Assembly (NCBI GenBank): GCA_036344075.1
Contig: JAYYUJ010000047.1
Span: forward strand, 13,821 to 77,820
Reading direction: 5' to 3'
DNA: 64,000 nt
From: Pseudomonadota bacterium
Lineage (GTDB): Bacteria; Pseudomonadota; Gammaproteobacteria; Pseudomonadales; UBA7434
A program made the position numbers and the translations under genes. How positions within the stretch are numbered: the stretch's first letter is position 1; each line of letters begins with the position of its first letter. Shown here one piece after another: positions 9,647-29,053 of the stretch. The notes under the pieces were generated by a model. The model made no database searches. It was not told where the DNA came from and saw nothing but the letters and a program-made list of their open reading frames with translations.

Positions 9647-9955
9647 TTATTCGCCTGTGATTGAATCTATAACTCCTTCAATGATGATCAGCTTTGATTT
9701 TGAGTATTTCTTTCTCATTGCATGAATATGGCTTAGTTCCTCTGAGTTCACCCATTTTGATGCTAACTCTTCATTGTCAAAAGCGATTACTACTAATCTT
9801 TCTGGAGCCCATTCACTATCGTGATAGATTATTTTCCCTGCTCTTATCAGATATCTACCCGAATATTTATGGACAGTTGGAGTTATCAATTTGAGATACT
9901 TTTGATATTCTTTTTGGTTTTTTACTTCGTTATCAACTATTACATATGTTGTCAT
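9647..9955 (-). CDS. DUF1330 domain protein
   Basis: 102 aa. The pattern YVIVDNEV...EYQKY...YSGRYLIRAGK...E..W.PERLVVIAF is typical of DUF1330. Confidence 0.7.
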   Translation of the reverse strand: MTTYVIVDNEVKNQKEYQKYLKLITPTVHKYSGRYLIRAGKIIYHDSEWAPERLVVIAFDNEELASKWVNSEELSHIHAMRKKYSKSKLIIIEGVIDSITGE

Positions 9956-11410: not shown

Positions 11411-11597
11411 CTGAGTTAAACACTGGAGCTAAATCTATATCATTAGAAGGCAGTGGGGCGTTTTGTAGGATTTTTGCCATTTTGGCTGCATTATTTATAT
11501 GGTGAACTACCCCATCATGATATTCAGGTTTAAAATCGATAGGTATTTCCTTAGACATGATCTCTATCAGTTTTGATGCATCAAGTTCATTATCCAT
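11394..11597 (-). CDS. AtzG-like / DUF4089 small subunit
   Basis: 67 aa, overlapping the amidase start by 17 nt. The pattern I.IDFKPEY..GVV.H...AAKMA..L...PLP...DLAPVF matches the small GatC-like partner found upstream of AtzE-family amidases. Confidence 0.6.
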   Translation of the reverse strand: MDNELDASKLIEIMSKEIPIDFKPEYHDGVVHHINNAAKMAKILQNAPLPSNDIDLAPVFNSGDTNG

Positions 11598-11770: not shown

Positions 11771-12400
11771 ATGAAGAAGCCACATAAAAGCGAGATTCGT
11801 GAAAAAAACTCTCAGATAATTTTAGATGCAGCTGAGCATGAATTTTCAGCACATGGGTATCGTGGGACAAGTGTTCAGATGATAGCAGATCGCTCAGGCC
11901 TTCCGAAAGCTAATTTACACTATTATTATAAAAGTAAGAGTGCTTTGTATGGTGCTGTTTTAGAGAGAATTTTGGTCCTATGGAACACTGGTCTCGATGA
12001 TTTAAATGTTGAGAATGACCCCAGAGAAGTTTTAGAGAAGTTTATTAGGTTAAAAGTTTATTTATCATGCACTCGACCTATGGGTTCAAAATTATTTGCA
12101 ACTGAAATTATTTCAGGTGCACCATATCTGAGCGATTACATTCGTTCTGATATGCGCGATTTTATTGAAGATAAAGTAAAAATTATAGAAAAATGGATCC
12201 AACAAAAAAAAATCCTAGCTGTTGATCCGCTAAATTTAATATTTTTGATTTGGGCTTCGACGCAGCACTATGCTGATTTCAATACTCAAGTATTAATATT
12301 AATGAATAAAGAAAAGTATGAAGAGAGAGATATTAAATTAATAGCAGATAATTTAGTACAAATTATTCTGCGTGGGTGTGGTCTCATACCTGAAAAGTAA
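11771..12400 (+). CDS. TetR-family regulator, RutR-like
   Basis: The HTH region and C-terminal LIFLIWASTQHYADF are nearly identical to E. coli RutR LIFMIWASTQHYADF (from memory). KANLHYYYKSKSALY compares with RutR KTNLLYYFPSKEALY. Confidence 0.85.
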   Translation: MKKPHKSEIREKNSQIILDAAEHEFSAHGYRGTSVQMIADRSGLPKANLHYYYKSKSALYGAVLERILVLWNTGLDDLNVENDPREVLEKFIRLKVYLSCTRPMGSKLFATEIISGAPYLSDYIRSDMRDFIEDKVKIIEKWIQQKKILAVDPLNLIFLIWASTQHYADFNTQVLILMNKEKYEERDIKLIADNLVQIILRGCGLIPEK

Positions 12401-12407
12401 AATATCA

Positions 12408-13790
12408 TTACTTTTTATATTTCTTTAAAAGTCTTTCAGCTTGATGATTTTGCTTCAATATAAGCTCTTTCTCGTCTAATTGTAGTAATTTACCTTCTGA
12501 AACAACCCATTTTCCTCCAACCATAACTCTATCGGCTCGGTTAGTGCCACTTAAGATCAGTGACGCTAATGGATCATGACTGCCAGAAAATTGTAGTTCA
12601 TCTTGTTTAAAAAGTGCTAGATCAGCTTTTTTTCCCACTGAAATTTCTCCAATATCTTGACGACCGATAATGTCAGCTGACCCTTTTGTAGCCCACTCCA
12701 ATGTTTTTCTATGTGAAATGTTTTCTGCGCCATATTTGAGCCGTTGTAACAATAATGCTTGTCTTACCTCGATAATCATGTTGCTAGCATCATTCGAGGC
12801 GGATCCATCAACACCAATACCTATCCTTGATCCCGCTCGAAGGAGTTCTTCTGTTTTGCAAATTCCTGATGCAAGAATCATATTTGATGTTGGGCAGTGG
12901 CTAATTCCAATTCCCGCTTCACCTAATCGTTTTATTTCAGAATTGTTGAAGTGAATACCATGAGCAAGCCAAGTATTATTATTTAGCCAGCCAACTTTTT
13001 CGAGATAATCAACTGGTTTACAGTCAAATTTTTCAAGACAGAAATTTTCTTCATCGATAGTTTCGGCTAAATGTGTATGAACTTTTACATTGTATTGCTT
13101 TGCAAGTTTAGCGGTTGACACCATTAATTCTTCGGAAACAGAGAAGGGAGAACATGGCGCTAGTGCGATTTGATTAAATGAGCCATCACTTTTATCATGG
13201 TATTTTTTGAGTAAGCGCTCACTATCCTCTAATATATTATCTTCACTCTGGACAACATGATCAGGCGGAAGTCCACCATCTTTTTCACCAAGTGACATCG
13301 ACCCACGACATAGGGTAACTCTTCCTCCCATTTGTTTGCTAGCAGCTATCTGGATATCTATTGCATGACTCATCTCTTCTGAAAAAATATAGTGGTGATC
13401 AACAGAAGTAGTGCAACCTGACAACAATAACTCTGCTATTGCTGTTTGTGTGGAGACGAAAATCATTTCATCATCAAGATTAGCCCATAGTGGATAAGAA
13501 CTTTCAAGCCAAGGGAAAAGTGCTTTATTTTGTGCATCGATGAATGCTCTTGAAAGCGTTTGGTAAAAATGGTGATGTGTATTTATTAATCCTGGTAAAA
13601 CAACGTATTCATTGGCATTAAATGTCTGATCGACTGGCAAACTTGGCGATCTGCCCATAGGAATTAATTCAGCAATCTTATCGCCCTCAATAACAATTCC
13701 TCCATTAGCATCCTGTTCGCTTATCATGAAAATAGATAAAGGTTCTTTAATCCAAAGTCTGTGCCCCTTTTGGCTTAAAGCGTCATTCAT
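12408..13790 (-). CDS. Amidohydrolase-superfamily deaminase, 8-oxoguanine-deaminase-like
   Basis: LWIKEPLSIF...VVLPGLINTHHHFYQTL, VHTHLAE and GVDGSASND. ATG 13790 (MNDALSQ) with AAGGA is preferred over 13859. Confidence 0.7.
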   Translation of the reverse strand: MNDALSQKGHRLWIKEPLSIFMISEQDANGGIVIEGDKIAELIPMGRSPSLPVDQTFNANEYVVLPGLINTHHHFYQTLSRAFIDAQNKALFPWLESSYPLWANLDDEMIFVSTQTAIAELLLSGCTTSVDHHYIFSEEMSHAIDIQIAASKQMGGRVTLCRGSMSLGEKDGGLPPDHVVQSEDNILEDSERLLKKYHDKSDGSFNQIALAPCSPFSVSEELMVSTAKLAKQYNVKVHTHLAETIDEENFCLEKFDCKPVDYLEKVGWLNNNTWLAHGIHFNNSEIKRLGEAGIGISHCPTSNMILASGICKTEELLRAGSRIGIGVDGSASNDASNMIIEVRQALLLQRLKYGAENISHRKTLEWATKGSADIIGRQDIGEISVGKKADLALFKQDELQFSGSHDPLASLILSGTNRADRVMVGGKWVVSEGKLLQLDEKELILKQNHQAERLLKKYKK

Positions 13791-13880
13791 AGCGATCCTT
13801 TTGAATTTAAATGTCAGTATTTGTAATGAAATATAATTTTTAGGGGTATCTATTACCAAAGATACAGCTTTTTTGCTATA

Positions 13881-13896
13881 TTGACCATATGGTCAG
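13881..13896. promoter_or_regulatory. RutR-type operator (TTGACCATATGGTCAG)
   Basis: 15 of 16 positions match the E. coli RutR box TTGACCAnnTGGTCAA. It lies in the 142-bp divergent region between the deaminase-like gene and the GGT-like operon. Confidence 0.6.
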
Positions 13897-13932: not shown

Positions 13933-15507
13933 ATGACATCTCATCTTTGTAAACCTGCTATTACCTCGCCTCACAAGTTAGCATCTGAGGCTGGTGCGGA
14001 CATTTTGCGTGAAGGTGGATCTGCTGTAGAGGCTGTTGTTGCTTGCGCTGCGGCTTTGACCGTAGTTTATCCACATATGAACTCTATTGGCGGTGATAGC
14101 TTTTGGTTGATCCAACCTAAAGGTAAAAAGCCTTTTGCGATAGATGCGAGCGGAAGATCTGCCGCAGCGGCAAATATGAATTTTTATGAGGGATATTCTT
14201 CGATACCTTCTAGGGGCGGCATTTCCTCATTGACCAGCGCTGGAACACTAAGTGGATGGAAGCTAGCCATTGATTTAGACGGAGACGCAAAATTACCCCT
14301 CTCTAGAATATTGTCTGCTGCAATCCAATATGCGAAGAATGGATTTACTGTTAGTAAAAGTCTAGAAAATTCCGCATCAATATTAGATAGTGTTACAGAA
14401 AAAAATAATTATTTTAATCAGCTTTATCAATCGAACGACAAAAGATTGTTTTATGGCGAAAATTTTACTAACAATGATTTGGCAAATACATTTATTCATC
14501 TTTCTAAAAAAGGCTTGAATGATTTTTATCAAGGTGAAATTGCCGAGCAATGTATAAAATCTTTAGTAAAAAACGGCAGCCCTTTAAGTACTGATGATCT
14601 CAAAAGTTATTCAGCTAAAAAAGTTGAACCACTAACTGTTCCTGTTCAGGGAGCTAAACTTTTTAACTTACCGGCACCAACACAAGGTGCAGCTTCACTA
14701 ATGATTTTAGCTATAGTCGATAGATTAAAAAAAGACCTTGAAAGTGAGTCGGATTTGATTCACTTAATAGTGGAGGCTACTAAAAGAGCCTTTATACTTC
14801 GCAATAAAAGTATAACAGATCCATCATTTACAGCTCCGACTTATGAATCAATGACGAGCTCTGAATGCATAATGAATGAGGCAAACAAAGTTAGTCTGTC
14901 CTCAGCGTTAGAATGGCCGTACTCATCAAGGGAGAGTGACACCGTTTGGGTTGGAGCAATCGATGCACAGGGGACACTTGTTAGCTTTATTCAAAGTATT
15001 TATTGGGAGTTTGGTTCAGGAATTGCTATTCCAGAGTTAGGTTTTGTTTGGAATAATCGTGGAACGAGTTTTAGTCTCGATAAAGATAATATCAATCATT
15101 TAAGGCCATCTGCAAAACCATTTCATACGCTAAATCCAGCTGTGGCTATTTTTGATGATGGCAGGAGATTAGCTTACGGATGTATGGGTGGTGAAGGGCA
15201 GCCTCAAACTCAAGCCGCAATATTTAGTCGATATGCATGGTTATCTGAGCCTTTAGAAACTGCTATTTCAAGGGGGAGGTGGCTATTAGGTCGGACATGG
15301 GGAAAGGAATCAAATAACCTAAAAATTGAGGCTGATATATTCGATGAAGTTAATGAGAGCCTCACTAACCTAGGCCATGATATTGAATGCGTGCCGAAAC
15401 GTTCGGAAATGATGGGTCATGCTGGGGCTATTTTAAGTGAAAGTTCCGGTGATTCATTTTCTGTGACGGATCCAAGGAGTGATGGTGCAGCTATAGTAAT
15501 TGATTAG
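13933..15507 (+). CDS. Gamma-glutamyltransferase-family Ntn hydrolase, no signal peptide (candidate HpxW-like oxamate amidohydrolase)
   Basis: 524 aa with a GGT-family N-terminus (SPHKLASEAGADILREGGSAVEAVVA...). The putative autoprocessing Thr is in SDTVWVGAID. The purine-catabolic context supports the HpxW-like reading. Confidence 0.75.
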   Translation: MTSHLCKPAITSPHKLASEAGADILREGGSAVEAVVACAAALTVVYPHMNSIGGDSFWLIQPKGKKPFAIDASGRSAAAANMNFYEGYSSIPSRGGISSLTSAGTLSGWKLAIDLDGDAKLPLSRILSAAIQYAKNGFTVSKSLENSASILDSVTEKNNYFNQLYQSNDKRLFYGENFTNNDLANTFIHLSKKGLNDFYQGEIAEQCIKSLVKNGSPLSTDDLKSYSAKKVEPLTVPVQGAKLFNLPAPTQGAASLMILAIVDRLKKDLESESDLIHLIVEATKRAFILRNKSITDPSFTAPTYESMTSSECIMNEANKVSLSSALEWPYSSRESDTVWVGAIDAQGTLVSFIQSIYWEFGSGIAIPELGFVWNNRGTSFSLDKDNINHLRPSAKPFHTLNPAVAIFDDGRRLAYGCMGGEGQPQTQAAIFSRYAWLSEPLETAISRGRWLLGRTWGKESNNLKIEADIFDEVNESLTNLGHDIECVPKRSEMMGHAGAILSESSGDSFSVTDPRSDGAAIVID

Positions 15508-15524
15508 TCAAAAGAGATAAGCCA

Positions 15525-16343
15525 TTGATAGATTTTTTTACCGTTTTACCTGTTGTTCTAGTTCTCATTTTCACTGGCATATTTGCTGGTGTTTTAGCGG
15601 GCTTATTGGGCGTAGGTGGCGGTATCGTTATTGTCCCTGTTTTATACTTTATATTTCAGGGCTTTGGGGTCTCCTCTGAGTCATCAATGGCGATTGCCGT
15701 GGCAACATCATTGGCCGTCATTGTGCCGACTTCGATATCCTCAATAAGATCTCATTTTAAAGCAGGAAACATTGACACTATGATCATGCGTCAATGGACA
15801 CCTTTTATATTTTTGTTTGCATTACTTGGAAGCTTATTTTCTAAGCAAATTGACGCCAAATTGATAATATCCTTATTTGGCATCATTGCTTGTTTTGTTA
15901 GTATAAATATGATTTTTAAAAATTCTTTTACGTTCACTTTTAGGCAACTACCTAGTCGCTTTATACAAACCATGATGGCATCAGTAGTAGGGTTCCTTTC
16001 TGTAATGATAGGTATCGGTGGTGGTACTTTGGGAGTTCCTATTTTAAGTTCGTTAAATTTAGCGACGCACAAAGCTGTTGGGACAGCTGCATGCTTTGGA
16101 TTATTTATTGCTTTGCCAGGCGCTTTAATGGCTCTTTTTTTGTCTGATACACCAAATGATGCGCTTATAGGACATGTGGGTCTTGTAAGTTTGCCAGCGT
16201 TGTTTCTGATAGCGCCATTGACTGTTATTTTCGCACCTATAGGTGTCAAATTAGGAAAAATTCTGAACCAAAATCAGTTGAAAAAGGTATTTGCAGTAAC
16301 CTTATTTTTTACTGGTTTGAGGATGTTGTATAAGGCTTATTAA
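15525..16343 (+). CDS. TauE/SafE (DUF81) family anion transporter
   Basis: 272 aa, about 8 TM segments, duplicated GLLGVGGG / IGIGGGTLGVP motifs, TTG start. Confidence 0.8.
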   Translation: MIDFFTVLPVVLVLIFTGIFAGVLAGLLGVGGGIVIVPVLYFIFQGFGVSSESSMAIAVATSLAVIVPTSISSIRSHFKAGNIDTMIMRQWTPFIFLFALLGSLFSKQIDAKLIISLFGIIACFVSINMIFKNSFTFTFRQLPSRFIQTMMASVVGFLSVMIGIGGGTLGVPILSSLNLATHKAVGTAACFGLFIALPGALMALFLSDTPNDALIGHVGLVSLPALFLIAPLTVIFAPIGVKLGKILNQNQLKKVFAVTLFFTGLRMLYKAY

Positions 16344-16374
16344 CTTTTTTAATTAGCAGATAGGTAAAATTTAA

Positions 16375-17631
16375 ATGTCTAAATCTAAAGATGACTCAAA
16401 TTTTTTTGGCGCCTTAAGTCCACCGCCTAGATTATTAATGGGTCCTGGCCCGATTAATGTCGACCCACGCGTACTTCAAGCCATGTCGACCCAATTGATT
16501 GGCCAATACGATCCTGTTATGACGAATTATATGAATGAGACAATGTCACTCTACAGGCAAGTATTTTATACCCAGAATAAGTGGACCTTACTCATTGATG
16601 GGACCTCGAGAGCAGGTATCGAAGCTATCATGGTATCTTTACTAAAGCCTGGCGATAAAGTTTTAGTACCCATAATGGGCAGGTTTGGTTTTTTGTTAGC
16701 CGAAATCGCAAAACGGGTGGGTGCTAAGGTAGAGATTATAGAGTGCCCTTGGGGAAGGGTTTTTTCCCCTGATGAAATAGAAGATGCTATTAAAAGAGTG
16801 AAGCCTAAGCTTCTGGCTACAGTCCAAGGGGACACCTCAACAACAATGCTTCAGCCTCTCTCAGACTTGGGTGAAATTTGTCGAAGACATGATGTTTTAT
16901 TTTTTTGTGATGCAACTGCATCTATAGGGGGAAATTTACTAAAGACTGATGAGTGGAAGCTCGATGCCGTTTCTGTTGGGCTACAAAAATGTTTAAGTGG
17001 CCCCTCCGGCTCGTCACCGATCACTATAAATGATAGGTTTGTTGAATTTATCCAGCCAAGGAAGCATATTGAGGCGGGTATTAAATCAAGTCATCATGAG
17101 GACGGCAACCAGCCATTTATTAATTCTAACTATTTCGATCTTCCAATGATCTTAGATTATTGGGGAGAGGAAAGACTCAATCACCACACCGAGGCCACAA
17201 CAATGCTTTATTGTGCCAGAGAGTGTGCAAGACTCATACTTAATGAGGGCATTGACAATGCTATACAAAGACACATAGATCATGGGACTGCTATGGTTAA
17301 AGGACTACAGGCAATGGGTTTAGAGTTGTTCGGTGATTTAAGTAACAAGATGTCAAATATAGTTGGTGTCTACATACCCAAGGGTATTGATGGTGAAGCT
17401 GTTCGGTCACAAATGCTTATTGATTTTGATATTGAGATTGGAACTTCTTTCGGGCCACTTCATGGAAAGATATGGCGAATTGGAACTATGGGTTATAACG
17501 CAAGGAAGTCAGCCGTATTATCAACTTTATCAGCTCTGGAGGTAACTTTACAAAACCAAGGTTTTAAATTGCCAAAGACTCAAGGACCATTGGAAGCACT
17601 TAATTACTACAAACAGCTTGGTACTAGCTGA
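16375..17631 (+). CDS. Class V aminotransferase, PucG-like (S)-ureidoglycine-glyoxylate aminotransferase candidate
   Basis: LLMGPGPINVDPRVLQAM, and the PLP lysine context VGLQKCLSGPSG. It sits immediately upstream of allantoate amidohydrolase. Confidence 0.7.
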   Translation: MSKSKDDSNFFGALSPPPRLLMGPGPINVDPRVLQAMSTQLIGQYDPVMTNYMNETMSLYRQVFYTQNKWTLLIDGTSRAGIEAIMVSLLKPGDKVLVPIMGRFGFLLAEIAKRVGAKVEIIECPWGRVFSPDEIEDAIKRVKPKLLATVQGDTSTTMLQPLSDLGEICRRHDVLFFCDATASIGGNLLKTDEWKLDAVSVGLQKCLSGPSGSSPITINDRFVEFIQPRKHIEAGIKSSHHEDGNQPFINSNYFDLPMILDYWGEERLNHHTEATTMLYCARECARLILNEGIDNAIQRHIDHGTAMVKGLQAMGLELFGDLSNKMSNIVGVYIPKGIDGEAVRSQMLIDFDIEIGTSFGPLHGKIWRIGTMGYNARKSAVLSTLSALEVTLQNQGFKLPKTQGPLEALNYYKQLGTS

Positions 17632-17636
17632 TTCTA

Positions 17637-18887
17637 ATGGACTTGAGATTTTCAACACAGAGGGTAATTGATCGTTGTCATGAACTGGCAAAAATTTCAG
17701 AACAACCTGAGTATATTTTGAGACGTTACCTAACTGAAGCCCATAAAAATGCTAACGCATTAGTAGCGAAATGGATGCAAGAATCGGGCATGACGGTTTG
17801 GCAAGATCAGGTTGGTAATCAGTGGGGTAGATATGATGGAACTGATCCAAAATTACCTGCGCTAGTGATTGGCTCACATCTCGATACTGTACCTGATGCT
17901 GGTCAGTATGATGGAATTATTGGTGTCATGTTGGGGATAGAGATAGTTGAAAGATTGTCTCTTAAAAACAAAAGATTACCATTTCCAATCGAGATTGTTG
18001 GTTTTGGTGATGAGGAGGGAGTGAGATTTGGAACAGCCTTTCTTGGTTCTCATGGTGTGACAGGGAGCTGGTGCGAAGATTGGCTCCAAATTAAGGATAA
18101 GGAAGGGAAAAGTTTATATCAATCAATGTTAGATTTTGGCTTAGATCCACTGGATAAACATCTTTCAATCCGCCCTCCGAGTTCGATATTAGGTTATTGG
18201 GAGGTTCATATCGAACAGGGCCCAAAGTTAGAGAGTTTAGGATTACCTTTAGGTGTTGTTACAGGTATTGCCGGTGCTCGTAGAGCAACATTAATGATTA
18301 AAGGTAAAGCTGGCCATGCTGGTACGACACCAATGAACCTTAGAAAAGATGCTCTTTGCGTGGCTTCTGAGATTATTTTGGCAGTCGAAGAGCTTGCTAA
18401 AAATTGCACTTACGAGGCAGTTGCCACGACTGGACAAGTTTTTGTAAATCCAGGAGCGACTAACGTTATTTCAGGTTCAGCTGCACTTTCCTTAGATGTA
18501 AGGGCTGTTAAAGATGAGTTTCGTGACGATTTAATTTTACGTATTTCCAATGAGGTTGATTTGATAGCTTCTAGAAGAAATGTTCAGATTCAATGGCAAT
18601 GGGATCATGAAGCGAAATCTGTTATGTGTGATGATACCTATCAGCAATTATTTTCTAAGGCTATGGAAAATAGTGGCCTAGAAACAGAGTCTCTTTTTTC
18701 AGGAGCTGGCCATGATGCTATGGCTATGGCAACTATTTGTCCTGTTGGGATGTTATTTATAAGAAGTCCAGATGGATTGAGTCACCATCCTGATGAATCA
18801 ATTATTTTTAGCGATGTGACTAAAGCAATTCAAGTTACTGAGTCAGCCTTAACTTCATATTCTGAAATCTTTGGAGAGTCTCAATGA
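17637..18887 (+). CDS. allC: Allantoate amidohydrolase (M20 family)
   Basis: GSHLDTVPDAGQYDG, GFGDEEG and GAGHDAM. An N-carbamoyl-amino-acid hydrolase is the alternative, and the context favours allantoate. Confidence 0.75.
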   Translation: MDLRFSTQRVIDRCHELAKISEQPEYILRRYLTEAHKNANALVAKWMQESGMTVWQDQVGNQWGRYDGTDPKLPALVIGSHLDTVPDAGQYDGIIGVMLGIEIVERLSLKNKRLPFPIEIVGFGDEEGVRFGTAFLGSHGVTGSWCEDWLQIKDKEGKSLYQSMLDFGLDPLDKHLSIRPPSSILGYWEVHIEQGPKLESLGLPLGVVTGIAGARRATLMIKGKAGHAGTTPMNLRKDALCVASEIILAVEELAKNCTYEAVATTGQVFVNPGATNVISGSAALSLDVRAVKDEFRDDLILRISNEVDLIASRRNVQIQWQWDHEAKSVMCDDTYQQLFSKAMENSGLETESLFSGAGHDAMAMATICPVGMLFIRSPDGLSHHPDESIIFSDVTKAIQVTESALTSYSEIFGESQ

Positions 18888-19213
18888 GTAAAATAACTAG
18901 TCATATTCTTGATACAACATGCGGCAAACCTGCAGAGGGGATTGTCGTTGAGTTATATTTAGAAAATGACTTAATTTCACATGATATATCTAATAATGAT
19001 GGAAGGGTTACATCACTCTTAAGCCATGAAAAGTCTTTAAGTCCTGGGAATTACAAACTTAAATTTTATACATCAGTTTATTTTAAAGCTAAGGGCGTTG
19101 AAAGTTTTTATCCCATAGTTGAGATTAATTTTAATGTTGAAGAAATTGACCAGCATTATCATGTGCCACTGCTTCTAGCAAGTCATGGTTACACCACATA
19201 CAGGGGATCATAA
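18884..19213 (+). CDS. uraH: 5-hydroxyisourate hydrolase
   Basis: 109 aa transthyretin-like protein with HILDTTCGKPAEG and the diagnostic C-terminal YTTYRGS. ATGA overlap with allC. Confidence 0.9.
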   Translation: MSKITSHILDTTCGKPAEGIVVELYLENDLISHDISNNDGRVTSLLSHEKSLSPGNYKLKFYTSVYFKAKGVESFYPIVEINFNVEEIDQHYHVPLLLASHGYTTYRGS

Positions 19214-19224
19214 TTCCAAATAAT

Positions 19225-20541
19225 ATGGATGCTTACAGAGCTGAAATTATCTATTGCACAAATGATCCAAGTAAATTTGGCGAGAGCGCAATTTGCCATT
19301 TTGAGGATGGTCTTTTGGTGGTTAACTCATCTGGTGAGATTGTAGCATGCGGTGAAGCAAAAACATTGCTTAAAGAATGGGGGGGTAATTGTTCTTATAA
19401 TGAGTATAAAAATCATCTCATTGTTCCTGGTTTCATAGATTCGCACATTCATTTTCCACAAACTGAAATGCTAGCTGCACACGGTGAGCAGTTATTATCA
19501 TGGTTGGAGAATTATACTTATCCAGTCGAAGAAAATTTCTGTAATAAATCATACAGCCTAAAGATTGCAAATGTCTTTCTTACAGAGCTCTTAAAAAATG
19601 GTACTACTTCAGCAGTTGTTTTTGGCAGTGTTCACAAGGAGTCAGTAGATGCCCTTTTTGAGCTTTCTTATGAGAAAAATATGCGAATAGTTGCTGGCAA
19701 AGCTCTTATGGATCGGAATGTCCCGCTCGGAGTTAGTGAAAATACTTTAGATGGATTTATTAAATCAAAAGAATTAATTGACCAGTGGCATAATAAAGGT
19801 CGTTTGTCATATGCAGTTACTCCTAGATTTGCCGCTTCATCTTCATATCAGCAGCTTGAGGGATGCAAAAAATTATTAAATGATTATCCAGACTTATATT
19901 TACAAACACATTTATCAGAAAATCATGAAGAGATTGACTTTGTAAAAAAAACTTATCCAACATTTCCAAATTATCTTAGTATCTATGATGAGTTTGACTT
20001 CCTTAGCCGGCCTTCGATTTTTGCACACTGTATACACTTAGAAGAAAAAGAGTGGGATCTTTTATCGAATACAAAAGCTGTTATAAGCCACTGTCCGACA
20101 TCGAATTTATTTTTAGGTTCTGGATTGTTTGATATGAAAAAAAGCCGTAACTTTAATATTCCAGTTACAATAGGAACTGACATAGGAGCTGGAACAAGTT
20201 TTTCTATGATGCAAACTTTCTCTGAGGCCTATAAGATTCAACAATTACAGGGTACATCTTTAAACGGTTTTGACGGCTTATATTTGATGACGTTAGCAGG
20301 TGCGAAGGCCATTAATTTAGATCACAGGATAGGTACTTTGGAAGCTGGAACTGAAGCAGACTTTGTCATTTTGAATTATAACTCAACCCCTTATATGGAA
20401 TTTAGAAATAGCAAATGCGATACAATCCATGACAGGCTTTTTTCTCTTTTGATGCTTGGTGATGATAGGGCCGTTTCTGAGACATATATTATGGGCAAGA
20501 AAAAATTTGATCAGTCAAATTGTAATGATACATATTTATAG
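19225..20541 (+). CDS. guaD: Guanine deaminase
   Basis: PGFIDSHIHFPQTEML, QTHLSEN, HCIHL and GTDIGAG. Confidence 0.85.
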   Translation: MDAYRAEIIYCTNDPSKFGESAICHFEDGLLVVNSSGEIVACGEAKTLLKEWGGNCSYNEYKNHLIVPGFIDSHIHFPQTEMLAAHGEQLLSWLENYTYPVEENFCNKSYSLKIANVFLTELLKNGTTSAVVFGSVHKESVDALFELSYEKNMRIVAGKALMDRNVPLGVSENTLDGFIKSKELIDQWHNKGRLSYAVTPRFAASSSYQQLEGCKKLLNDYPDLYLQTHLSENHEEIDFVKKTYPTFPNYLSIYDEFDFLSRPSIFAHCIHLEEKEWDLLSNTKAVISHCPTSNLFLGSGLFDMKKSRNFNIPVTIGTDIGAGTSFSMMQTFSEAYKIQQLQGTSLNGFDGLYLMTLAGAKAINLDHRIGTLEAGTEADFVILNYNSTPYMEFRNSKCDTIHDRLFSLLMLGDDRAVSETYIMGKKKFDQSNCNDTYL

Positions 20542-20553
20542 GTATTAGAACTT

Positions 20554-21738
20554 ATGCAATCGGATTGGCTAGAAATAATAAATTTAATTTTAAGATACTT
20601 TCACGTTGTCGCTGGTATAGCATGGATCGGTGCGTCATTTTATTTCATATGGCTGGATAATAATCTTGAGGAGCCTGCTAGATTAAAAACTGATATGGGT
20701 ATAAAGGGAGATTTATGGGCGATTCATGGAGGCGGCATTTATGAGGTCTCAAAATATAAATTAGCTCCAAAAGAAATGCCAAGTAAACTGCATTGGTTTA
20801 AATGGGAAGCTTATAGTACATGGATTAGTGGTTTTCTCTTATTAACATTAATATATTACATCAATGCTGATAGCTACTTAATTGATAAAGAAAAAATAAG
20901 CATCACTCAGCCAGTATCAATATTAATAAGTCTAGGAAGTCTTGTTTTTGGTTGGTTGATCTATAACGGATTATGTCGCTCCAAGATTATTAATAATGGA
21001 ATATTTTTTGCTTCAGTCTGTCTGTTAATTATCGGATTATTTAGTTTATTTCTGGATCAAATATTTTCAGATAGAGGCGCTTTTATCCACATAGGGGCTA
21101 TGATAGGAACATGCATGGCAGCAAATGTATGGAGAGTCATCATACCATCTCAAAAGTACCTAGTTAGCTCTATCAATGACGGAACTGAACCAGACCCCAA
21201 GATAAGCGAGCATGCCAAATTAAGGTCAACGCATAATAATTATGTGACATTGCCTTTGTTGTTTTTAATGATCAGCCATCATTACTCTTTCATTTATAGC
21301 CATGAGTTTAGTTGGTTGGCATTGGTTGGTATAGTTTTAATTGGCATGCTGATTAGGCATTACTTTAATTTGCGACATAAAGGAGTTAACAAGCCAGTTT
21401 TCTTTTTGAGCGGTTTTCTCTCTTTTTTAATATTAACCTTCTATTTAATGCCATCACCAAATAGGAATGTGGTTTCGTCAGCTCAGATATCTGACGGACA
21501 AGTAATGTCAATCATAAATATGCATTGCACCAGTTGTCATAGTCGGCGGCCAACAGATGAGGTATTTGCAGTTGCACCCGGCGGTATCTATCTTAATACT
21601 AGAGAAGATTTAATCCGTTGGGAAGATAAAATAATTTCCAGTGCTGTTAAAAGTAATTGGATGCCACTTGCGAACAAAACAAAAATGACTGAAGAGGAAA
21701 GAAAGGTTATATATAGCTGGCTAAAACAACAGAACTAA
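20554..21738 (+). CDS. puuD: Membrane cytochrome c urate hydroxylase PuuD
   Basis: N-terminal FHVVAGIAWIGASFYFIWLDN, a multi-TM body, and a C-terminal CTSCH heme-c motif. Confidence 0.8.
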   Translation: MQSDWLEIINLILRYFHVVAGIAWIGASFYFIWLDNNLEEPARLKTDMGIKGDLWAIHGGGIYEVSKYKLAPKEMPSKLHWFKWEAYSTWISGFLLLTLIYYINADSYLIDKEKISITQPVSILISLGSLVFGWLIYNGLCRSKIINNGIFFASVCLLIIGLFSLFLDQIFSDRGAFIHIGAMIGTCMAANVWRVIIPSQKYLVSSINDGTEPDPKISEHAKLRSTHNNYVTLPLLFLMISHHYSFIYSHEFSWLALVGIVLIGMLIRHYFNLRHKGVNKPVFFLSGFLSFLILTFYLMPSPNRNVVSSAQISDGQVMSIINMHCTSCHSRRPTDEVFAVAPGGIYLNTREDLIRWEDKIISSAVKSNWMPLANKTKMTEEERKVIYSWLKQQN

Positions 21739-21763: not shown

Positions 21764-22663
21764 TCATTTATGAGAATCAGATATTCGCCTACTTAAGAAC
21801 TCGCTAACTAAGACTTTTTCATAATTTGAATTTTCATTATTACATCTTGAATGATTGAGACTTTCGACTACTACATCTGAGTCTGGATCTAAAAAAACTG
21901 CAATTGAAAATCTCCTAGATCTTCCAGGACTGGTGGTTACTCTGTGAAGAACTGATGGGAAGTGCCCATTAGTCCAAATCTCCATAAGATCGCCGGTATT
22001 TATAATGACTTCATTTATATTTGAATTCAGTTGAATCCATTCATTCTCAATAAATATCTCAAGTCCACCTATACCTTCTGAAAAGAGAAGAGTTATTGCA
22101 CCATAATCTGTATGAGCACCTGCCCCAAATTGATTATTGAGGGGTTCAGAATTATTAGGATAGTGTAGTAGCCTGATGGTTATATTTTCTCCTGTATGTA
22201 AACTATTAAAAAATCCTGTTGTAATGCCTAAATAATTCTCTATACAAAGAAAAATTTTTCTAGAAGCCTCTAAGACGTCAAAATAAAAGAGAAGTAATGC
22301 TTGTCTAAATTGAGCGGATGGAAAATTTTCAACAGGATGCTGACCTGGATTTCGAAGAGTAAGTGTTTCTTTAAGATCTGGTTGTGAGTCACTATTTAAA
22401 CGCTCAGAGTTAATATTCTGGTAGCCAAAATTACTTTTAGCAGAGCTGTAAGCAAATTGATTTTTTTCTTCTTCATCCATATTAAAAAAATCTTTGCTCG
22501 CCTTAAAAAGATTTTCCAAATACTCTTTGTTTATACCCAAGTTTTCTATTATAAGGAAACCCGATTGTGAAAGTTTAGTTCCAATTTCGTTACTAAGATC
22601 TTTAGTACCATTTGAAGTCTTACTATAAGAAGAAAAATCAATTGAAGGGGTATTCTTTACCAT
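21764..22663 (-). CDS. 2-oxoglutarate/Fe(II)-dependent oxygenase (IPNS-like family)
   Basis: HTDYGAITLLF (HxD), PSVLHRV (distal His) and RRFSIAVF (RxS). It lies 3 nt downstream of uraD. Confidence 0.75.
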   Translation of the reverse strand: MVKNTPSIDFSSYSKTSNGTKDLSNEIGTKLSQSGFLIIENLGINKEYLENLFKASKDFFNMDEEEKNQFAYSSAKSNFGYQNINSERLNSDSQPDLKETLTLRNPGQHPVENFPSAQFRQALLLFYFDVLEASRKIFLCIENYLGITTGFFNSLHTGENITIRLLHYPNNSEPLNNQFGAGAHTDYGAITLLFSEGIGGLEIFIENEWIQLNSNINEVIINTGDLMEIWTNGHFPSVLHRVTTSPGRSRRFSIAVFLDPDSDVVVESLNHSRCNNENSNYEKVLVSEFLSRRISDSHK

Positions 22664-22666
22664 TTT

Positions 22667-23164
22667 TTAGCCTTGGTCAAAAAAAATATTAATTCTATGG
22701 TTAGTGATCTTATTTTGTTGAATAGCAGCATTCACTAATTCTTGCTCAGTGGTATTCAATAATCTCTTTTTTAAAATTTCAGCCATTTGATTTGCTGTTT
22801 TTCCTGTGGCAAAAACGATGAATATAAATCCATTCTTTAATTCATAGGTCTTATTCATTTCAAAAAGCTGTTTGATGACTGACTCGTCCGCATCGATAAT
22901 TTGACCTTGTTCTTTCCTGGCTTTCGAATACTTGTTTTTTATAGAAGAAATGTCTCCGATTTTGGCATGGCTTGAAAAAGCCTCCATTAGATCTTCCTCT
23001 TCAGATCGGCTCCAAACTTCTTTAGAGTCATTTAACATTTGTTCTATATCAATAAAAGGCCTTTTATTGATCATTGATTTTACCCATTTCTTTGATGAGC
23101 AAAATTCTAGGAGCACATTTTTGGCATCTTCGTTGTTTAATAGATTGAACTCTTCAAGGGTCAT
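22667..23164 (-). CDS. uraD: OHCU decarboxylase
   Basis: 165 aa. The N-terminus (FNLLNNEDAKNVLLEFCSSKKWV) and HAKIGD match the family's HPxIG region. ATGA overlap with xdhC. Confidence 0.8.
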   Translation of the reverse strand: MTLEEFNLLNNEDAKNVLLEFCSSKKWVKSMINKRPFIDIEQMLNDSKEVWSRSEEEDLMEAFSSHAKIGDISSIKNKYSKARKEQGQIIDADESVIKQLFEMNKTYELKNGFIFIVFATGKTANQMAEILKKRLLNTTEQELVNAAIQQNKITNHRINIFFDQG

Positions 23165-24012
23165 CTTAAAGGTATCACTTCATGACTTAGGTTTAATTCT
23201 TTTTTTAAGGTTTTCCAATCTAAAAGATTTGAATCCTTTCGATTTCCGGTGAGGGATAGTAGATATGCAGCAACAGAAATAGCAATTTCTTTTGGCTTTT
23301 TGCTCTTTATGCCTTCAATTCCAATGGGGCATTGAAAACGATTTACATCATCAGGATGCAAGCCATCATTTTTTAATCGGGCGCGGAATTTTCTAGATTT
23401 ATTACTTGAGCCAATTAAACCGACATAGGACCATCTCCAATCATCGAGTAGTTTTTTCATTAATAGGTAATCTAATTCGTGATCATGTGTTAAAATTAAA
23501 ACATAACTTCCTTCATCTAGATTGTTTATTTCATTATCTGGCTTTTCAATGTAGTCTGGCATTCTTTTACTACTAACTGCCGATGAGAACGATTTCCTCG
23601 AATCAAACCATGATATTTCAAAGTCCAGGTCTCCTATAATTTGTACTAATTCATGGGCTATATGCCCGCCACCAAAGATAGCAAGAGGAATTTTGTTAAA
23701 AATAAATGTTTCAATTAACACAGTCATGGTACCACCACAACATTGTTTGCACGATGAAGACAGATAAAATTCTTTTATCTCTTGCGAAGCGCAATTATTG
23801 TTAAGCAATTCTCGAGCGCGATTAATAATTTGAAACTCTAATTTCCCACCACCTATTGAGTCATAAGTATTCTCAGTTGTGATTACCATCTTTGAACCTG
23901 ACCCTCTAGGTGATGATCCTGATGACGATATTACCGTCGCAAGTGCATGCGGATGATTAAGCTTTGTAAGTTTTGAAATTACATCACTCCAAGGTGTCGA
24001 TAGCATAGTCAT
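23161..24012 (-). CDS. xdhC: Xanthine dehydrogenase accessory protein XdhC
   Basis: 283 aa with GGGHIAHELVQI in a Rossmann-like segment, positioned directly after xdhB. Confidence 0.8.
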   Translation of the reverse strand: MTMLSTPWSDVISKLTKLNHPHALATVISSSGSSPRGSGSKMVITTENTYDSIGGGKLEFQIINRARELLNNNCASQEIKEFYLSSSCKQCCGGTMTVLIETFIFNKIPLAIFGGGHIAHELVQIIGDLDFEISWFDSRKSFSSAVSSKRMPDYIEKPDNEINNLDEGSYVLILTHDHELDYLLMKKLLDDWRWSYVGLIGSSNKSRKFRARLKNDGLHPDDVNRFQCPIGIEGIKSKKPKEIAISVAAYLLSLTGNRKDSNLLDWKTLKKELNLSHEVIPLR

Positions 24013-24027
24013 TTTTTTAATTCACCT

Positions 24028-26361
24028 CTATGAAGTCATTTTATTTTTTAAAGCGTCTTCAGCGGCAAAAAAAACTGATTCATTAGTCGCTGGTGCGGAG
24101 AGGGATGGACTGTATTTATAGTTTGAAAGGCTTGAGCATGCGTCTCTTATTGCACACCAAGTTGATATGGCAAGCATAAAAGGCGGTTCACCGACTGCTT
24201 TAGACTTATGTATTGTTTCTTCAGTGTTATCTTGATTATAAAGTTCAACATTGAAAATGGATGGAGTATCAAAAGCAGTGGGTATTTTATAGGTTGCAGG
24301 ACCTTGACAATTGATCTTTCCTTTTTCATCCCAATTTAAATCTTCTGTGGTCAACCAGCCCATCCCTTGTATGAACCCTCCTTCTATTTGGCCTATGTCA
24401 ATACCGGGATTTAATGATTTTCCTGTATCATGGAGAATATCAACTTGATTCACCCTGTATTGCCCTGTAGTGATATCAATTGTAACTTCAGAGCAAGCCG
24501 CGCCATTAGCAAAATAATAAAATGGTCTTCCCTTGCCTGTATCAGGGTCAAACCAGATCTTAGGAGTTTTGTAGTATCCTGTTGAGCTTAGTTGAATTCT
24601 GTTTAGATATGCTAAATTTATAAAATCTTCAAAAGGTATTTTCTCCTTCCCAGCGATAATATGATTGTTTTTGAAATAAATTGAAGATTCATCGATGTTA
24701 AAGTAACTCACAGCAAAATTAACTAATTTTTTCTTTATCTGATTACAAGCATCTAATGCAGCCATGCCATTCATATCTGATCCTGAAGAGGCAGCTGTTG
24801 GTGATGTGTTCGGAACCTTATCTGTCCTTGTTGCTGAAGATTTAACTCGTTCAATAGAAACCCCAAAAGCGTTTGCGACAACTTGTTGGACCTTGATAAA
24901 TAAACCTTGGCCCATTTCTGTACCGCCATGGTTTAACAAGATACTACCATCGGTATAAATATGAACTAACGCCCCAGCTTGATTTAAATGTTTTGACGTA
25001 AAAGAGATCCCAAATTTCACGGGTGTCAGTGCAATACCTTTCTTGAGGTATTCATTAGTTTGGTTAAATTCTATAATTTCACGACGCCTCAGCCAATAAT
25101 CTGATTGATCCTCTAATTTTTCAATGAGCGGCAGCAAAATATTCTCATCAACTTCTTGACCATAGGGTGTAGTATCGCCTGGCTTGTATAGGTTTTTTTT
25201 CCTTACAATTAATGGATCAAGTCCTATCTTTCGGGCTATATCATCTATCATTGATTCGCATGCAAGCATGCCTTGAGGCCCACCGAATCCTCTAAATGCT
25301 GTATTTGATGCTTTGTTTGTTTTGCAAAAATGGCCTTTTATTTGTACATTTGGATATTGGTATGCATTATCAGCATGAAACATGGCTCTTTGAACAATTC
25401 CAATTGAAAGATCCATAGAGCATCCACAATCAGCATATAAGTCAATATCAACTGCTTCTATTTTACCGTTTCCGTCGAAACCAACTTTGTATGAAGAAAG
25501 GAATGGATGACGTTTGCCTGTCTGTATAAAATCATCCCTACGATTCATTCGATGCTTAACAGGCCGGTTGCATCTCATTGCAAAAAGTGCCGCAATACAA
25601 GCGGTAATCGCTGCTTGGGATTCTTTTCCCCCAAAGGCCCCGCCCATACGCCTCACTTCGGTTTGAATACTGTGTAATGGAAGGTCAAGAACTTCTGAGA
25701 CAAGTTTTTGTATTTCACTAGGGTGTTGGCTTGAGCTATGTATAGTTATGCTATCTTCACTGGGAACAGCAAGCGCCACTTGGCTTTCAAGGTAGAAATG
25801 TTCTTGGCTAGGTATTTGAAGTTCAGACTCAAGAATGTTTGCTGATTTTTTAATTGAATTTTTAGCGTCACCAGATTTAAAAATTTTAGGTGGCATGAGA
25901 TACGAGTTTTTCTTTTTGGATTCAGCTATGTCAATTATTGGTTCCAGATTTTCATATTCCACAACTGCTAAGGCAACGGCTTTATGGGCTGCCTTGTAAG
26001 ACAAAGCAGCAACAGCAAATATTATTTGCCCATAAAAATTCACTGTTTGATCAGCTAGGAGAGGATCACCATCAAAAACTGGTGCTATATCATTTAGACC
26101 GGGTATATCTGAACTAATGATTACGTCGATAACGTCCTTGGCATTTCTTACTTTTGATAAATCGATTTTTTTAATTTTTGCATGTGCTTGGGTTGAAAAA
26201 CCAGTCGCCACATGAAGTAAACCTTCTTGCTCAGATATATCATCAACGTATTTAGCGCAGCCACTGACATGCTTAATCGCAGAGTCATGTATGATAGCTT
26301 CACCGATTATGGATGAGTTATTATCCAACGTGCCTTTAGTGTGATGATTAATTTTTCGCAT
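24028..26361 (-). CDS. xdhB: Xanthine dehydrogenase molybdopterin-binding subunit
   Basis: 777 aa with RRMGGAFGGKE, FRGFGGPQG, GGTEMGQG and KAVGEPP. Confidence 0.95.
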   Translation of the reverse strand: MRKINHHTKGTLDNNSSIIGEAIIHDSAIKHVSGCAKYVDDISEQEGLLHVATGFSTQAHAKIKKIDLSKVRNAKDVIDVIISSDIPGLNDIAPVFDGDPLLADQTVNFYGQIIFAVAALSYKAAHKAVALAVVEYENLEPIIDIAESKKKNSYLMPPKIFKSGDAKNSIKKSANILESELQIPSQEHFYLESQVALAVPSEDSITIHSSSQHPSEIQKLVSEVLDLPLHSIQTEVRRMGGAFGGKESQAAITACIAALFAMRCNRPVKHRMNRRDDFIQTGKRHPFLSSYKVGFDGNGKIEAVDIDLYADCGCSMDLSIGIVQRAMFHADNAYQYPNVQIKGHFCKTNKASNTAFRGFGGPQGMLACESMIDDIARKIGLDPLIVRKKNLYKPGDTTPYGQEVDENILLPLIEKLEDQSDYWLRRREIIEFNQTNEYLKKGIALTPVKFGISFTSKHLNQAGALVHIYTDGSILLNHGGTEMGQGLFIKVQQVVANAFGVSIERVKSSATRTDKVPNTSPTAASSGSDMNGMAALDACNQIKKKLVNFAVSYFNIDESSIYFKNNHIIAGKEKIPFEDFINLAYLNRIQLSSTGYYKTPKIWFDPDTGKGRPFYYFANGAACSEVTIDITTGQYRVNQVDILHDTGKSLNPGIDIGQIEGGFIQGMGWLTTEDLNWDEKGKINCQGPATYKIPTAFDTPSIFNVELYNQDNTEETIHKSKAVGEPPFMLAISTWCAIRDACSSLSNYKYSPSLSAPATNESVFFAAEDALKNKMTS

Positions 26362-28141: not shown

Positions 28142-29053
28142 ATGGTTACGAGTCAAAACAAATACCCTAGGGACATGATAGGTTATGGAGCGAAGCTACC
28201 TGATATAAAGCTCCCTGGGGATGCGAGGATTGCAGTTCAATTTGTCTTGAATTATGAGGAGGGCGGAGAAAATTCTGTTCTCCATGGTGATGGAGCCTCA
28301 GAGACCTTTTTATCAGAAATTATCGGTGCAAGAGCTTATGAAGATCGTCATATGAGTATGGAGTCTCTCTACGAATATGGAAGTCGTGCAGGGTTTTGGC
28401 GTGCCCATGATTTTTTTGTTGAGCAAAATATACCATTAACAGTTTTTGGTGTTGGTATGGCTTTAGAGCGAAATCCTGAAGCTGTTAGAGCCATGCTTAA
28501 TGCTAACTGGGAAATTGCCTGTCACGGGTATCGCTGGATTGATCATCAATTTATGCCAAGAGAGGTCGAAAGAAATCAAATAGCAAAAGCAATGGAGACA
28601 CATTTAGCTGTAACAGGAGCGCTTCCTGTCGGTTGGTACACAGGTAGAGATAGTCCAAATACTCGAACCCTTGTATTAGAGCATGAAAATATTCTATATG
28701 ATTCTGATTCCTATGCAGATGACCTTCCATATTGGGTAAAAGGTCCAAAAGCTCCACATCTTGTTATTCCATATACGTTAGACACCAATGATATGCGCTT
28801 TGCTACGGCTCAGGGGTTTAATTCAGGTGAACAATTCTTTCAATATATCAAAGACGCTTTCGATATCCTTTATGAGGAGGGCGAAAAGACACCTAAGCTT
28901 TTAAACATTGGTTTGCATTGCAGAATTATTGGACGTCCAGCTAGATTCAAAGCGCTCAAAAAGTTCGTTTCGTATATTAAATCAAAATCTAATGTCTGGA
29001 TTTGTAAGCGTGAGGACATTGCCTATCATTGGCATGAGAATCATCAACCATAA
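28142..29053 (+). CDS. puuE: Allantoinase PuuE (polysaccharide-deacetylase fold)
   Basis: YPRDMIGYG..., IAVQFVLNYEEGGENSVLHGD, and HGYRWIDH. Confidence 0.85.
   Translation: MVTSQNKYPRDMIGYGAKLPDIKLPGDARIAVQFVLNYEEGGENSVLHGDGASETFLSEIIGARAYEDRHMSMESLYEYGSRAGFWRAHDFFVEQNIPLTVFGVGMALERNPEAVRAMLNANWEIACHGYRWIDHQFMPREVERNQIAKAMETHLAVTGALPVGWYTGRDSPNTRTLVLEHENILYDSDSYADDLPYWVKGPKAPHLVIPYTLDTNDMRFATAQGFNSGEQFFQYIKDAFDILYEEGEKTPKLLNIGLHCRIIGRPARFKALKKFVSYIKSKSNVWICKREDIAYHWHENHQP

Follow-up and report, generated by a model that had tools for sequence, protein, structure and literature searches.

Gene organisation of the purine region

A stretch of 64,000 nucleotides (the window) from contig JAYYUJ010000047.1 of assembly GCA_036344075.1, a gammaproteobacterium of the lineage UBA7434 (Pseudomonadales), was examined for its genes of purine catabolism. 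It carries seven plus-strand open reading frames (ORFs) between positions 13933 and 21738, at the coordinates given by an earlier reading of the same sequence (the original prediction), and the family assignments made there hold in profile and structure-database searches. The region around these genes is probably an HPX-type (Klebsiella-type) purine nitrogen-scavenging system of a marine gammaproteobacterium. The seven genes are:

13933-15507, + strand: HpxW-like cytoplasmic GGT-family amidase, predicted oxamate amidohydrolase (PF01019, 387 bits)
15525-16343, + strand: TauE/SafE (TSUP, DUF81) membrane transporter, 272 aa (PF01925, 160.7 bits, full length)
16375-17631, + strand: HpxJ/PucG-type ureidoglycine-glyoxylate aminotransferase, class V (PF00266; 629 bits to 3NNK)
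17637-18887, + strand: allantoate amidohydrolase of AllC/HpxK type (NF006775 equivalog, 543.6 bits against a cutoff of 479)
18884-19213, + strand: 5-hydroxyisourate (HIU) hydrolase UraH (TIGR02962, 129 bits against a cutoff of 87)
19225-20541, + strand: guanine deaminase GuaD (NF006679, 589 bits, and TIGR02967, 544 bits, both above cutoff)
20554-21738, + strand: PuuD-type membrane cytochrome-c urate oxidase (PF06181 Urate_ox_N, 405 bits), with a CTSCH haem-c motif at residue 325

Neighbouring genes are separated by 17, 31, 5, -4, 11 and 12 nt, the negative value being an ATGA overlap of the allC stop codon with the uraH start codon; the tight spacing and this junction, both pointed out in the original prediction, can be read directly from the sequence. 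Dozens of other genomes keep the first four genes in the same arrangement, a degree of conservation far beyond what chance would give. The tail of the operon, uraH-guaD-puuD, is particular to this lineage.

For comparison, a single scan of species-representative genomes was made with the HpxJ-like protein as anchor. The 80 loci obtained were annotated by tblastn with the proteins of the window, and loci are cited below by L numbers. HpxJ and AllC form a near-universal pair among the anchored loci.

The GGT-family protein is of HpxW type

The first gene of the operon encodes a member of the gamma-glutamyltransferase (GGT) family. Its best match among solved structures is HpxW of Klebsiella pneumoniae (5HFT; 236 and 217 bits for the two chains, 453 bits summed), followed by 2NLZ, annotated as a cephalosporin acylase (208 bits), with GGT of Escherichia coli at 154 bits. 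The protein is 42% identical to the large chain of K. pneumoniae HpxW and 43% identical to the HpxW orthologue of Candidatus Pantoea carbekii, which is sited in an hpxWXYZ operon, but shares only 26% identity with E. coli GGT. The core of an Ntn-hydrolase has been preserved: Thr337 aligns with Thr391 of E. coli GGT and with the first residue of the small chain of 5HFT, and the Gly-Gly oxyanion hole (Gly483/Gly484) is conserved in the alignment with E. coli GGT. The E. coli residues that we take to bind the gamma-glutamyl group (Arg114, Asn411, Gln430, Asp433 and Ser462/463) are all replaced (R114S, N411Y, Q430R, D433S, S462H and S463T), and Tyr444, presumably the residue of the lid loop, falls in a gap. 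All marine homologues examined, and the Pantoea orthologue as well, carry the same pocket replacements. The N-terminus (MTSHLCKPAITSPHKLASEAG) is without a hydrophobic signal and a signal peptide is absent, whereas E. coli GGT starts with MIKPTFLRRVAIAALLSGSCFSAAAA.

On these identities, scores and pocket residues, and with no signal peptide, the protein resembles HpxW, as had been proposed, and is no glutathione-hydrolysing GGT; the first refuting condition named in the original prediction, a clustering with such GGTs, is thereby countered. It is predicted to be a cytoplasmic oxamate amidohydrolase (oxamate to oxalate and NH3). The label "oxamate amidohydrolase" is already attached to relatives in some sources. 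That the protein is a true gamma-glutamyl hydrolase or an enzyme resembling cephalosporin acylase, the operon then stopping at oxalurate or oxamate, is very unlikely. The generic GGT equivalog TIGR00066 is missed by little (312.8 bits against a cutoff of 357.85) and the second-best solved structure carries an acylase annotation; however, the curated GGT cutoffs are not reached (NF007187 gives 145 bits against 990), every gamma-glutamyl-binding residue checked has been replaced, the lid tyrosine is gone, and the score to HpxW is to be set against the much lower scores to the two alternatives.

The aminotransferase step and the ureidoglycolate branch

The match of the HpxJ-like protein to 3NNK, the ureidoglycine-glyoxylate aminotransferase of K. 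pneumoniae, is near full length; a further match was found to PucG of Bacillus subtilis (3ISL, 471 bits), and the protein is 67% identical to its P. carbekii orthologue. The transamination route of the HpxJ/PucG kind that had been suggested for this operon is borne out by the strength of the two structural matches. PucG is homologous to the window's aminotransferase and converts ureidoglycine and glyoxylate to oxalurate and glycine. In B. subtilis it forms a side branch alongside the ureidoglycine aminohydrolase/ureidoglycolate route; the window, in contrast, encodes no such route. Among window ORFs of at least 100 aa, no match was found to ureidoglycine aminohydrolase, ureidoglycolate lyase or hydrolase, urease or allophanate hydrolase, in agreement with the original prediction, in which these 64 kb were said to lack both urease and the ureidoglycolate branch. 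The term "urea-free" describes what the window is predicted to encode, not the whole genome. In Colwellia echini (L003:1-5555), genes for urea carboxylase and allophanate hydrolase lie directly upstream of a module of the order RutR-like/RraA/amidase/GGT/TauE/HpxJ/AllC, so that the term may not fit every carrier of the module.

A candidate oxalurate amidohydrolase upstream of the operon

The operon had been described as encoding the conversion of oxalurate to oxamate. This step is not encoded by the seven genes themselves, but a candidate enzyme pair resembling AtzG and AtzE was identified 2.3 kb upstream, inside a four-gene unit on the minus strand:

11394-11597, - strand: AtzG-like small subunit (HpxX type), 67 aa (PF13318, 43.3 bits against a cutoff of 24)
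9971-11410, - strand: AtzE-family amidase (HpxY type), 479 aa (NF006631, 615.6 bits against a cutoff of 461)
9647-9955, - strand: DUF1330 protein, downstream of the AtzE-like gene (PF07045, 79 bits)
8314-9630, - strand: nucleobase permease of the Xan_ur_permease family, last in the unit (PF00860, 151 bits)

The AtzG-like ORF overlaps the start of the AtzE-like gene. The AtzE-like protein scores 398 bits to AtzE (6C62_A), against about 215 for GatA, and is 43% identical to HpxY of the P. carbekii hpxWXYZ operon (L035), in which the GGT gene is followed by genes for AtzG-like (61 aa), AtzE-like (470 aa) and AtzH-like (PF11533) proteins. The AtzG-like ORF matches the AtzG structure 6C62_C with E=0.005 and is 35% identical to its Agarilytica counterpart (E=2e-10). 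A BLASTP comparison of this 67-aa ORF with Pantoea HpxX gave no alignment, and their kinship is visible only via the Pfam AtzG-like profile and the Agarilytica homologue. In PMC12625717, which cites Huynh & Stewart 2023 on this point, HpxY is given as the oxalurate amidohydrolase of the HPX pathway. The AtzG/AtzE pair is a strong candidate for this enzyme (predicted reaction: oxalurate to oxamate, NH3 and CO2). With the pair and the HpxW-like protein, the window appears to encode the whole route from guanine or xanthine to oxalate, one step beyond the oxamate at which the title of the original prediction had ended.

Most HpxJ-AllC loci, from marine Gammaproteobacteria to Actinobacteria, carry another amidase-signature protein of about 400 aa (e.g. 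L002:7213-8415; most of L006-L085), for which the nearest model is NF006169 (367 bits, just under cutoff). Equating this protein with the AtzE-like protein of the window was rejected, as the two share only 27-31% identity and match different NCBIfam models. No sequence of the ~400-aa amidase, RraA-like or AtzH-like kind was found in any frame of the window. The ~400-aa amidase is missing beside GGT/HpxJ in the window, in Pantoea (L035), Agarilytica (L086) and Microbulbifer (L088) and in L090, and AtzG/AtzE is present in each of these; the AtzE-like protein of the window is 62% identical to that of Agarilytica and 59% identical to that of Microbulbifer. In L091 the pair lies beside xdhABC-uraD-uraH and a RutR-like gene, and here too a gene of the Xan_ur_permease family stands beside the small ORF and AtzE. 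Such an either/or pattern is expected of two non-homologous enzymes for one step, and it is the main argument that both act on oxalurate. The step appears, from these gene neighbourhoods, to be filled by at least two unrelated and mutually replacing amidase types, with the ~400-aa protein as a candidate amidase, not described so far, for oxalurate (or oxamate).

Each amidase type has companions. An RraA-like gene accompanies the ~400-aa amidase in L002, L003, L015, L020, L039 and L051. A DUF1330 gene adjoins AtzG-AtzE in the window and in L086:9346-9645, L088:9456-9749 and L090:9376-9684, the window protein being 38-40% identical to the copies in L086 and L088. In the enteric hpxWXYZ operon the corresponding place is occupied by the AtzH-like HpxZ, and the DUF1330 protein may be a functional stand-in for AtzH/HpxZ or may have some other role with the amidase. 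There is the possibility of three interchangeable solutions for oxalurate, namely the ~400-aa amidase (with RraA-like in some), AtzG/AtzE with DUF1330, and AtzG/AtzE with an AtzH-like protein. A Cupin_5 (PF06172) gene was seen beside the AtzG/AtzE unit in L086:8824-9330, L090:11659-12312 and L091:7646-8218; it is absent from the window.

Several observations weigh against oxalurate as the substrate of the pair. The role of HpxXY as oxalurate amidohydrolase is itself a prediction in the literature reached, and a figure legend of the same paper (PMC12625717) labels hpxY differently. A tblastn search of the window with HpxZ of L035 found nothing. By score the AtzE-like protein is about equally near to authentic AtzE of Pseudomonas sp. 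ADP (398 bits) and to Pantoea HpxY (372 bits), no RutR-type box was found upstream of the AtzG/AtzE unit at up to three mismatches, and Halioxenophilus sp. WMMB6 possesses both a module with the ~400-aa amidase (L045) and a 58%-identical AtzG/AtzE pair (L087), the latter placed with an isochorismatase-family hydrolase in another cluster for nitrogen compounds. These last three points favour an alternative in which the pair acts on another ureide, for instance 1-carboxybiuret or a product of urate over-oxidation, and oxalurate is either handled outside the window, e.g. by AllFGH, or is the end product; in E. coli it is this oxamic transcarbamylase that has been proven to act on oxalurate (PMC11326118). 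We consider such a substrate rather unlikely, however. Homologues of AtzD, AtzF, AtzH and biuret hydrolase were not found in the window, and the four closest relatives with inspected context (L086, L088, L090 and L091) all lie in purine clusters. Three of the four closest pairs stand beside PuuE and near GGT/HpxJ, in clusters without the ~400-aa amidase. HpxW would also be left without a source of its substrate unless an oxalurate-cleaving enzyme exists.

A conserved module in marine Gammaproteobacteria

The order amidase-GGT-TauE-HpxJ-AllC was identified in more than 30 marine gammaproteobacterial species, among them members of Pseudoalteromonas, Colwellia, Reinekea, Paraglaciecola and Vibrio. 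The module is often preceded by a gene for a RutR-like regulator and, in Colwellia and Pseudoalteromonas, by an RraA-like gene as well. The window has the identical GGT-TauE-HpxJ-AllC order, with identities of 47-56% for GGT, 50-58% for TauE, 63-73% for HpxJ and 40-54% for AllC, and shares the same RutR-like regulator and operator. It differs in being without the ~400-aa amidase and the RraA-like gene, having instead AtzG/AtzE and DUF1330 like Agarilytica, Microbulbifer and L090, and in the addition of uraH-guaD-puuD to the operon. No published description of the marine module (RutR-like-RraA-like-amidase-GGT-TauE-HpxJ-AllC) was found in the literature.

The reduced 1.15-Mb genome of the stink-bug symbiont Ca. 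P. carbekii (L035) keeps PuuE, an Asp/Glu/hydantoin-type racemase, hpxWXYZ, hpxJ and an allantoate amidohydrolase together. This gene set is consistent with the recycling of host uric acid nitrogen by the HPX route.

The TauE/TSUP transporter

The second gene of the operon encodes a protein that covers positions 1-237 of the 237 of PF01925, with 160.7 bits against a cutoff of 32.6, and it has a size typical of the TSUP family (TauE, SafE, TsaS, KbuT). The characterised or proposed substrates of these proteins are sulfite, sulfoacetate, toluenesulfonate and alpha-ketobutyrate, but none has been tied to purines, oxalate or oxamate. The family reaches beyond sulfur compounds, KbuT being needed for the use of alpha-ketobutyrate in Neisseria (PMC12671195). 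A context of sulfur metabolism was not found for the present transporter, whose neighbours in the window, as in over 30 related loci, are genes for the breakdown of purines. A search for literature linking TauE, TSUP or DUF81 to purine catabolism, allantoin or oxalate found none, and in this respect the remark in the original prediction that the transporter is unexplained by known pathways stands; it is not a local peculiarity, however, but a widely conserved part of the module. Its relatives hold the same slot between GGT and HpxJ in the more than 30 marine species, and the slot is kept across Alteromonadales, Vibrio, Reinekea, Pokkaliibacter and Cellvibrionales in both amidase variants. In a neighbour-joining tree the module copies of TauE form one group.

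Co-occurrence was counted in the 74 HpxJ-anchored loci whose upstream flank is 3 kb or longer, GGT being counted at 40% identity or more. TauE next to HpxJ and GGT in the locus were found together in 31/74 loci and were both missing from 39/74; TauE without GGT was seen in 2/74 and GGT without TauE in 2/74. L032, counted among the latter, does have TauE behind a longer spacer. The simplest reading that fits both the association with GGT and the GGT-less exceptions is that TauE exports the terminal C2 acid, which would be oxalate, or oxamate where HpxW is missing. We put this forward tentatively, at a little short of even confidence, both as to the substrate and as to the direction of transport. 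That the protein is a dedicated exporter of oxalate (or oxamate), as the dead-end C2 product of HPX-type catabolism, is suggested with slightly more reserve.

A number of findings do not sit easily with export of the C2 acid. GGT occurs without TauE in the enteric locus L035 and in Microbulbifer L088, and three loci (L020, L022 and L039) read amidase-TauE-HpxJ-AllC without GGT. A TauE orthologue of Spongiibacter (L005:10001-10828, Logan contig) nests in the module clade and stands away from purine genes. The counts are, moreover, suggestive only, being inflated by the shared ancestry of the block in related marine lineages, with few independent events. As to the loci themselves, the three without GGT derive from metagenome-assembled genomes, two labelled Halothiobacillus and one Gynuella, and oxamate may be where the pathway ends in the bacteria concerned. 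The Spongiibacter gene lies among Abi/PIN defence-type genes, near TauD/GntR genes, and its product is 69% identical to the Halioxenophilus copy.

Two other roles for the transporter were weighed. In one, TauE serves the aminotransferase step by importing glyoxylate, the obligatory amino acceptor, or by moving glycine, the enzymatic pathway being unchanged. Its position directly upstream of hpxJ, held also in the three GGT-less loci, would suit this role, as would the part of KbuT in alpha-keto acid use in Neisseria and the glycine and acetate phenotypes obtained with TSUP genes of Shewanella (PMC12671195). On the other hand, 39 HpxJ-AllC loci (Actinobacteria, Kushneria, Photobacterium and others) need the same co-substrate and are without a nearby TauE, the presence of TauE follows GGT and not HpxJ, and free glyoxylate in seawater would be an unlikely supply to depend on; we regard a role of this kind as unlikely. 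The transporter might also be a generic exporter of sulfite or another small anion, or serve membrane housekeeping, and be carried with the block without a specific link to purines. The family annotation (sulfite/sulfonate export), the nested Spongiibacter orthologue standing alone near TauD and GntR genes and the Microbulbifer and enteric clusters that do without TauE all speak for this. Yet the same slot, with short or overlapping junctions, is found across Alteromonadales, Vibrionales, Oceanospirillales-type bacteria and Cellvibrionales, through a swap of the amidase type, and is hard to account for without selection for co-expression. A passenger of this sort is judged improbable, and export of the C2 acid is retained as the working proposal.

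Regulation

A regulatory gene and two palindromes were identified at the borders of the purine units:

11771-12400, + strand: RutR-like TetR-family regulator (TIGR03613 and NF011584 matches below cutoff)
13881-13896: RutR-box-like palindrome TTGACCATATGGTCAG, one mismatch to TTGACCAnnTGGTCAA
27963-27978: second RutR-box-like palindrome TTGACCAACTAGTCAA, between xdhA and puuE, one mismatch to TTGACCAnnTGGTCAA

The reference sequence TTGACCAnnTGGTCAA is what we take to be the RutR box of E. coli. The window holds two such sites, where 0.24 would be expected. In the 73-nt divergent region between the 8-oxoguanine deaminase-like gene and hpxW there is a promoter-like site (TTACCA-18 nt-TATATT, 13853-13882), and the palindrome at 13881-13896 begins inside its -10 hexamer (13877-13882). 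In related loci, regulators 42-51% identical to the RutR-like protein of the window flank the module or xdhA with the same box alongside; the stretch between xdhA and the RutR-like gene contains the box in L017:17029, L028:17140, L029:17140, L034:17098 and L057:18934, and a RutR-box-like palindrome was also found at L006:8745. Judged from its position and these sites, the RutR-like TetR protein is a probable repressor of the hpxW and xdh/puuE units, presumably binding the operator of the adjacent operon and the second operator at xdhA/puuE, and the recurrence of the box suggests a conserved purine regulon under this protein in related marine genomes. The seven genes would form one transcription unit, read from a promoter overlapped by the RutR-type operator. 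The proposal of a single transcript is based on the spacing and the conserved gene order; the promoter and terminator scan of the window was at or below chance overall, and no internal terminator stands out in the operon.

Upper pathway and neighbouring genes

The genes for the upper pathway and for uptake are located on both sides of the operon:

12408-13859, - strand: 8-oxoguanine deaminase-like amidohydrolase, divergent from the operon (NF006055, 663.7 bits against a cutoff of 532)
21764-22663, - strand: 2OG-Fe(II) oxygenase, convergent with puuD (PF03171 and PF14226; DIOX_N plus 2OG-FeII_Oxy)
22667-23164, - strand: uraD
23161-24012, - strand: xdhC
24028-26361, - strand: xdhB
26348-27853, - strand: xdhA
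28142-29053, + strand: PuuE allantoinase (TIGR03212, 489.8 bits against a cutoff of 424.6)
29227-31782, + strand: TonB-dependent receptor, probable purine uptake
31921-33294, + strand: NCS2 permease of xanthine/urate type, probable purine uptake
33361-34407, + strand: NUP purine nucleoside permease, probable purine uptake

Within the uraD-xdhCBA group (22667-27853), NF010372, TIGR02964 and TIGR02965 score above cutoff, and TIGR02963 falls below it (433 bits against 467). With xdhABC, uraD and puuE present as the original prediction stated, all steps from guanine or xanthine to ureidoglycine are encoded. The trio of TonB receptor, NCS2 and NUP permeases was also found after AllC in L046-L049, and in Colwellia a homologue of the 8-oxoguanine deaminase-like protein comes after AllC. 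Homologues of the 2OG-Fe(II) oxygenase recur close to purine genes in L007, L008, L015, L020 and L087.

The purine block of about 26 kb is flanked by genes for a weakly LuxE-like acyl-protein synthetase (6797-8284, + strand) and a LuxC-like acyl-CoA reductase (34445-35893, + strand). With a G+C content of 0.34-0.40, it lies below the sequence at 44-58 kb and at 1-8 kb (0.42-0.48). A luxE/luxC-like gene pair may once have stood here and been separated when the purine genes were inserted.

Proposed pathway and comparison with known systems

Gene content, homology, conservation of active-site patterns, synteny and co-occurrence together make the following enzymatic pathway highly probable, all enzyme activities in it being predicted ones. 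Guanine would be converted to xanthine by GuaD and xanthine to urate by XdhABC, and the 8-oxoguanine deaminase-like protein would supply urate from 8-oxoguanine. PuuD, UraH and UraD would then yield allantoin from urate, PuuE allantoate from allantoin, and AllC ureidoglycine from allantoate with release of NH3 and CO2. The amino group of ureidoglycine would be transferred to glyoxylate by the HpxJ-like protein, giving glycine and oxalurate. The AtzG/AtzE-like amidase (HpxX/HpxY type) would cleave oxalurate to oxamate, NH3 and CO2, and the HpxW-like Ntn-hydrolase would convert oxamate in the cytoplasm to oxalate and NH3, the terminal acid leaving through TauE/TSUP if the export proposal holds. 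The four ring nitrogens would exit as three NH3 and one glycine, with no urea.

The logic of this lower pathway is that of the Klebsiella HPX system (hpxK, hpxJ, hpxWXYZ), with which four components are shared at the sequence level (HpxK/AllC, HpxJ, HpxX/HpxY and HpxW). The HpxW-type amidase carries the same active-site substitutions, and no ureidoglycolate branch or urease was found among window ORFs of at least 100 aa. Differences were also noted. The upper pathway of Klebsiella consists of the HpxDE hydroxylase, the FAD urate oxidase HpxO and the allantoinase HpxB, whereas that of the window consists of XdhABC, PuuD and PuuE. The AtzH-like HpxZ is absent from the window, which has the DUF1330 gene beside its AtzG/AtzE pair; hpxW is in one operon with hpxJ and allC, with AtzG/AtzE in a separate divergent unit; and the window has a TauE/TSUP gene between hpxW and hpxJ and a RutR-like TetR regulator.

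With the 1-carboxybiuret hydrolase AtzE-AtzG of Pseudomonas sp. ADP, the pair in the window shares a large subunit of the amidase-signature family and a GatC-like small subunit of about 65 aa (PF13318), and by analogy its chemistry would be the deamidation of a terminal ureido group. The window differs in having no AtzD (cyanuric acid hydrolase), AtzF or AtzH, in its purine context and in the predicted substrate, oxalurate. The region was judged to be neither a GGT system for glutathione, in view of the pocket residues and the missing signal peptide of the GGT-family protein, nor an Atz system for cyanuric acid, in view of the absence of AtzD, AtzF and AtzH from the window. The pathway logic is already known from HPX, and no new pathway or chemistry is involved; the overall reading in the original prediction was essentially right, though incomplete at the oxalurate step and at the oxalate end.

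What is new here is the conserved partnership of a TSUP protein with HpxW, the apparent alternation between two kinds of amidase and the DUF1330 companion. The urea-free route of HPX type is widespread in marine Gammaproteobacteria and reaches Actinobacteria as a compact module, whose proteins are still annotated in databases as "gamma-glutamyltransferase", "sulfite exporter" and "amidase". The two amidase types offer a comparative handle on the oxalurate step, which is only predicted in the literature reached, and the near-constant partnership of HpxW and TSUP makes the fate of oxalate a testable hypothesis in culturable relatives. If the transporter is a dedicated exporter, the TSUP family would gain its first member with a C2 carboxylate as defined substrate, and the fate of the oxalate of the pathway would be explained. 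Many marine heterotrophs that scavenge purine nitrogen (Alteromonadales, Vibrionales, Cellvibrionales, Reinekea and others) would then release oxalate or oxamate to seawater, and the dissolved oxalate or oxamate of the sea would come in part from the scavenging of purine nitrogen.

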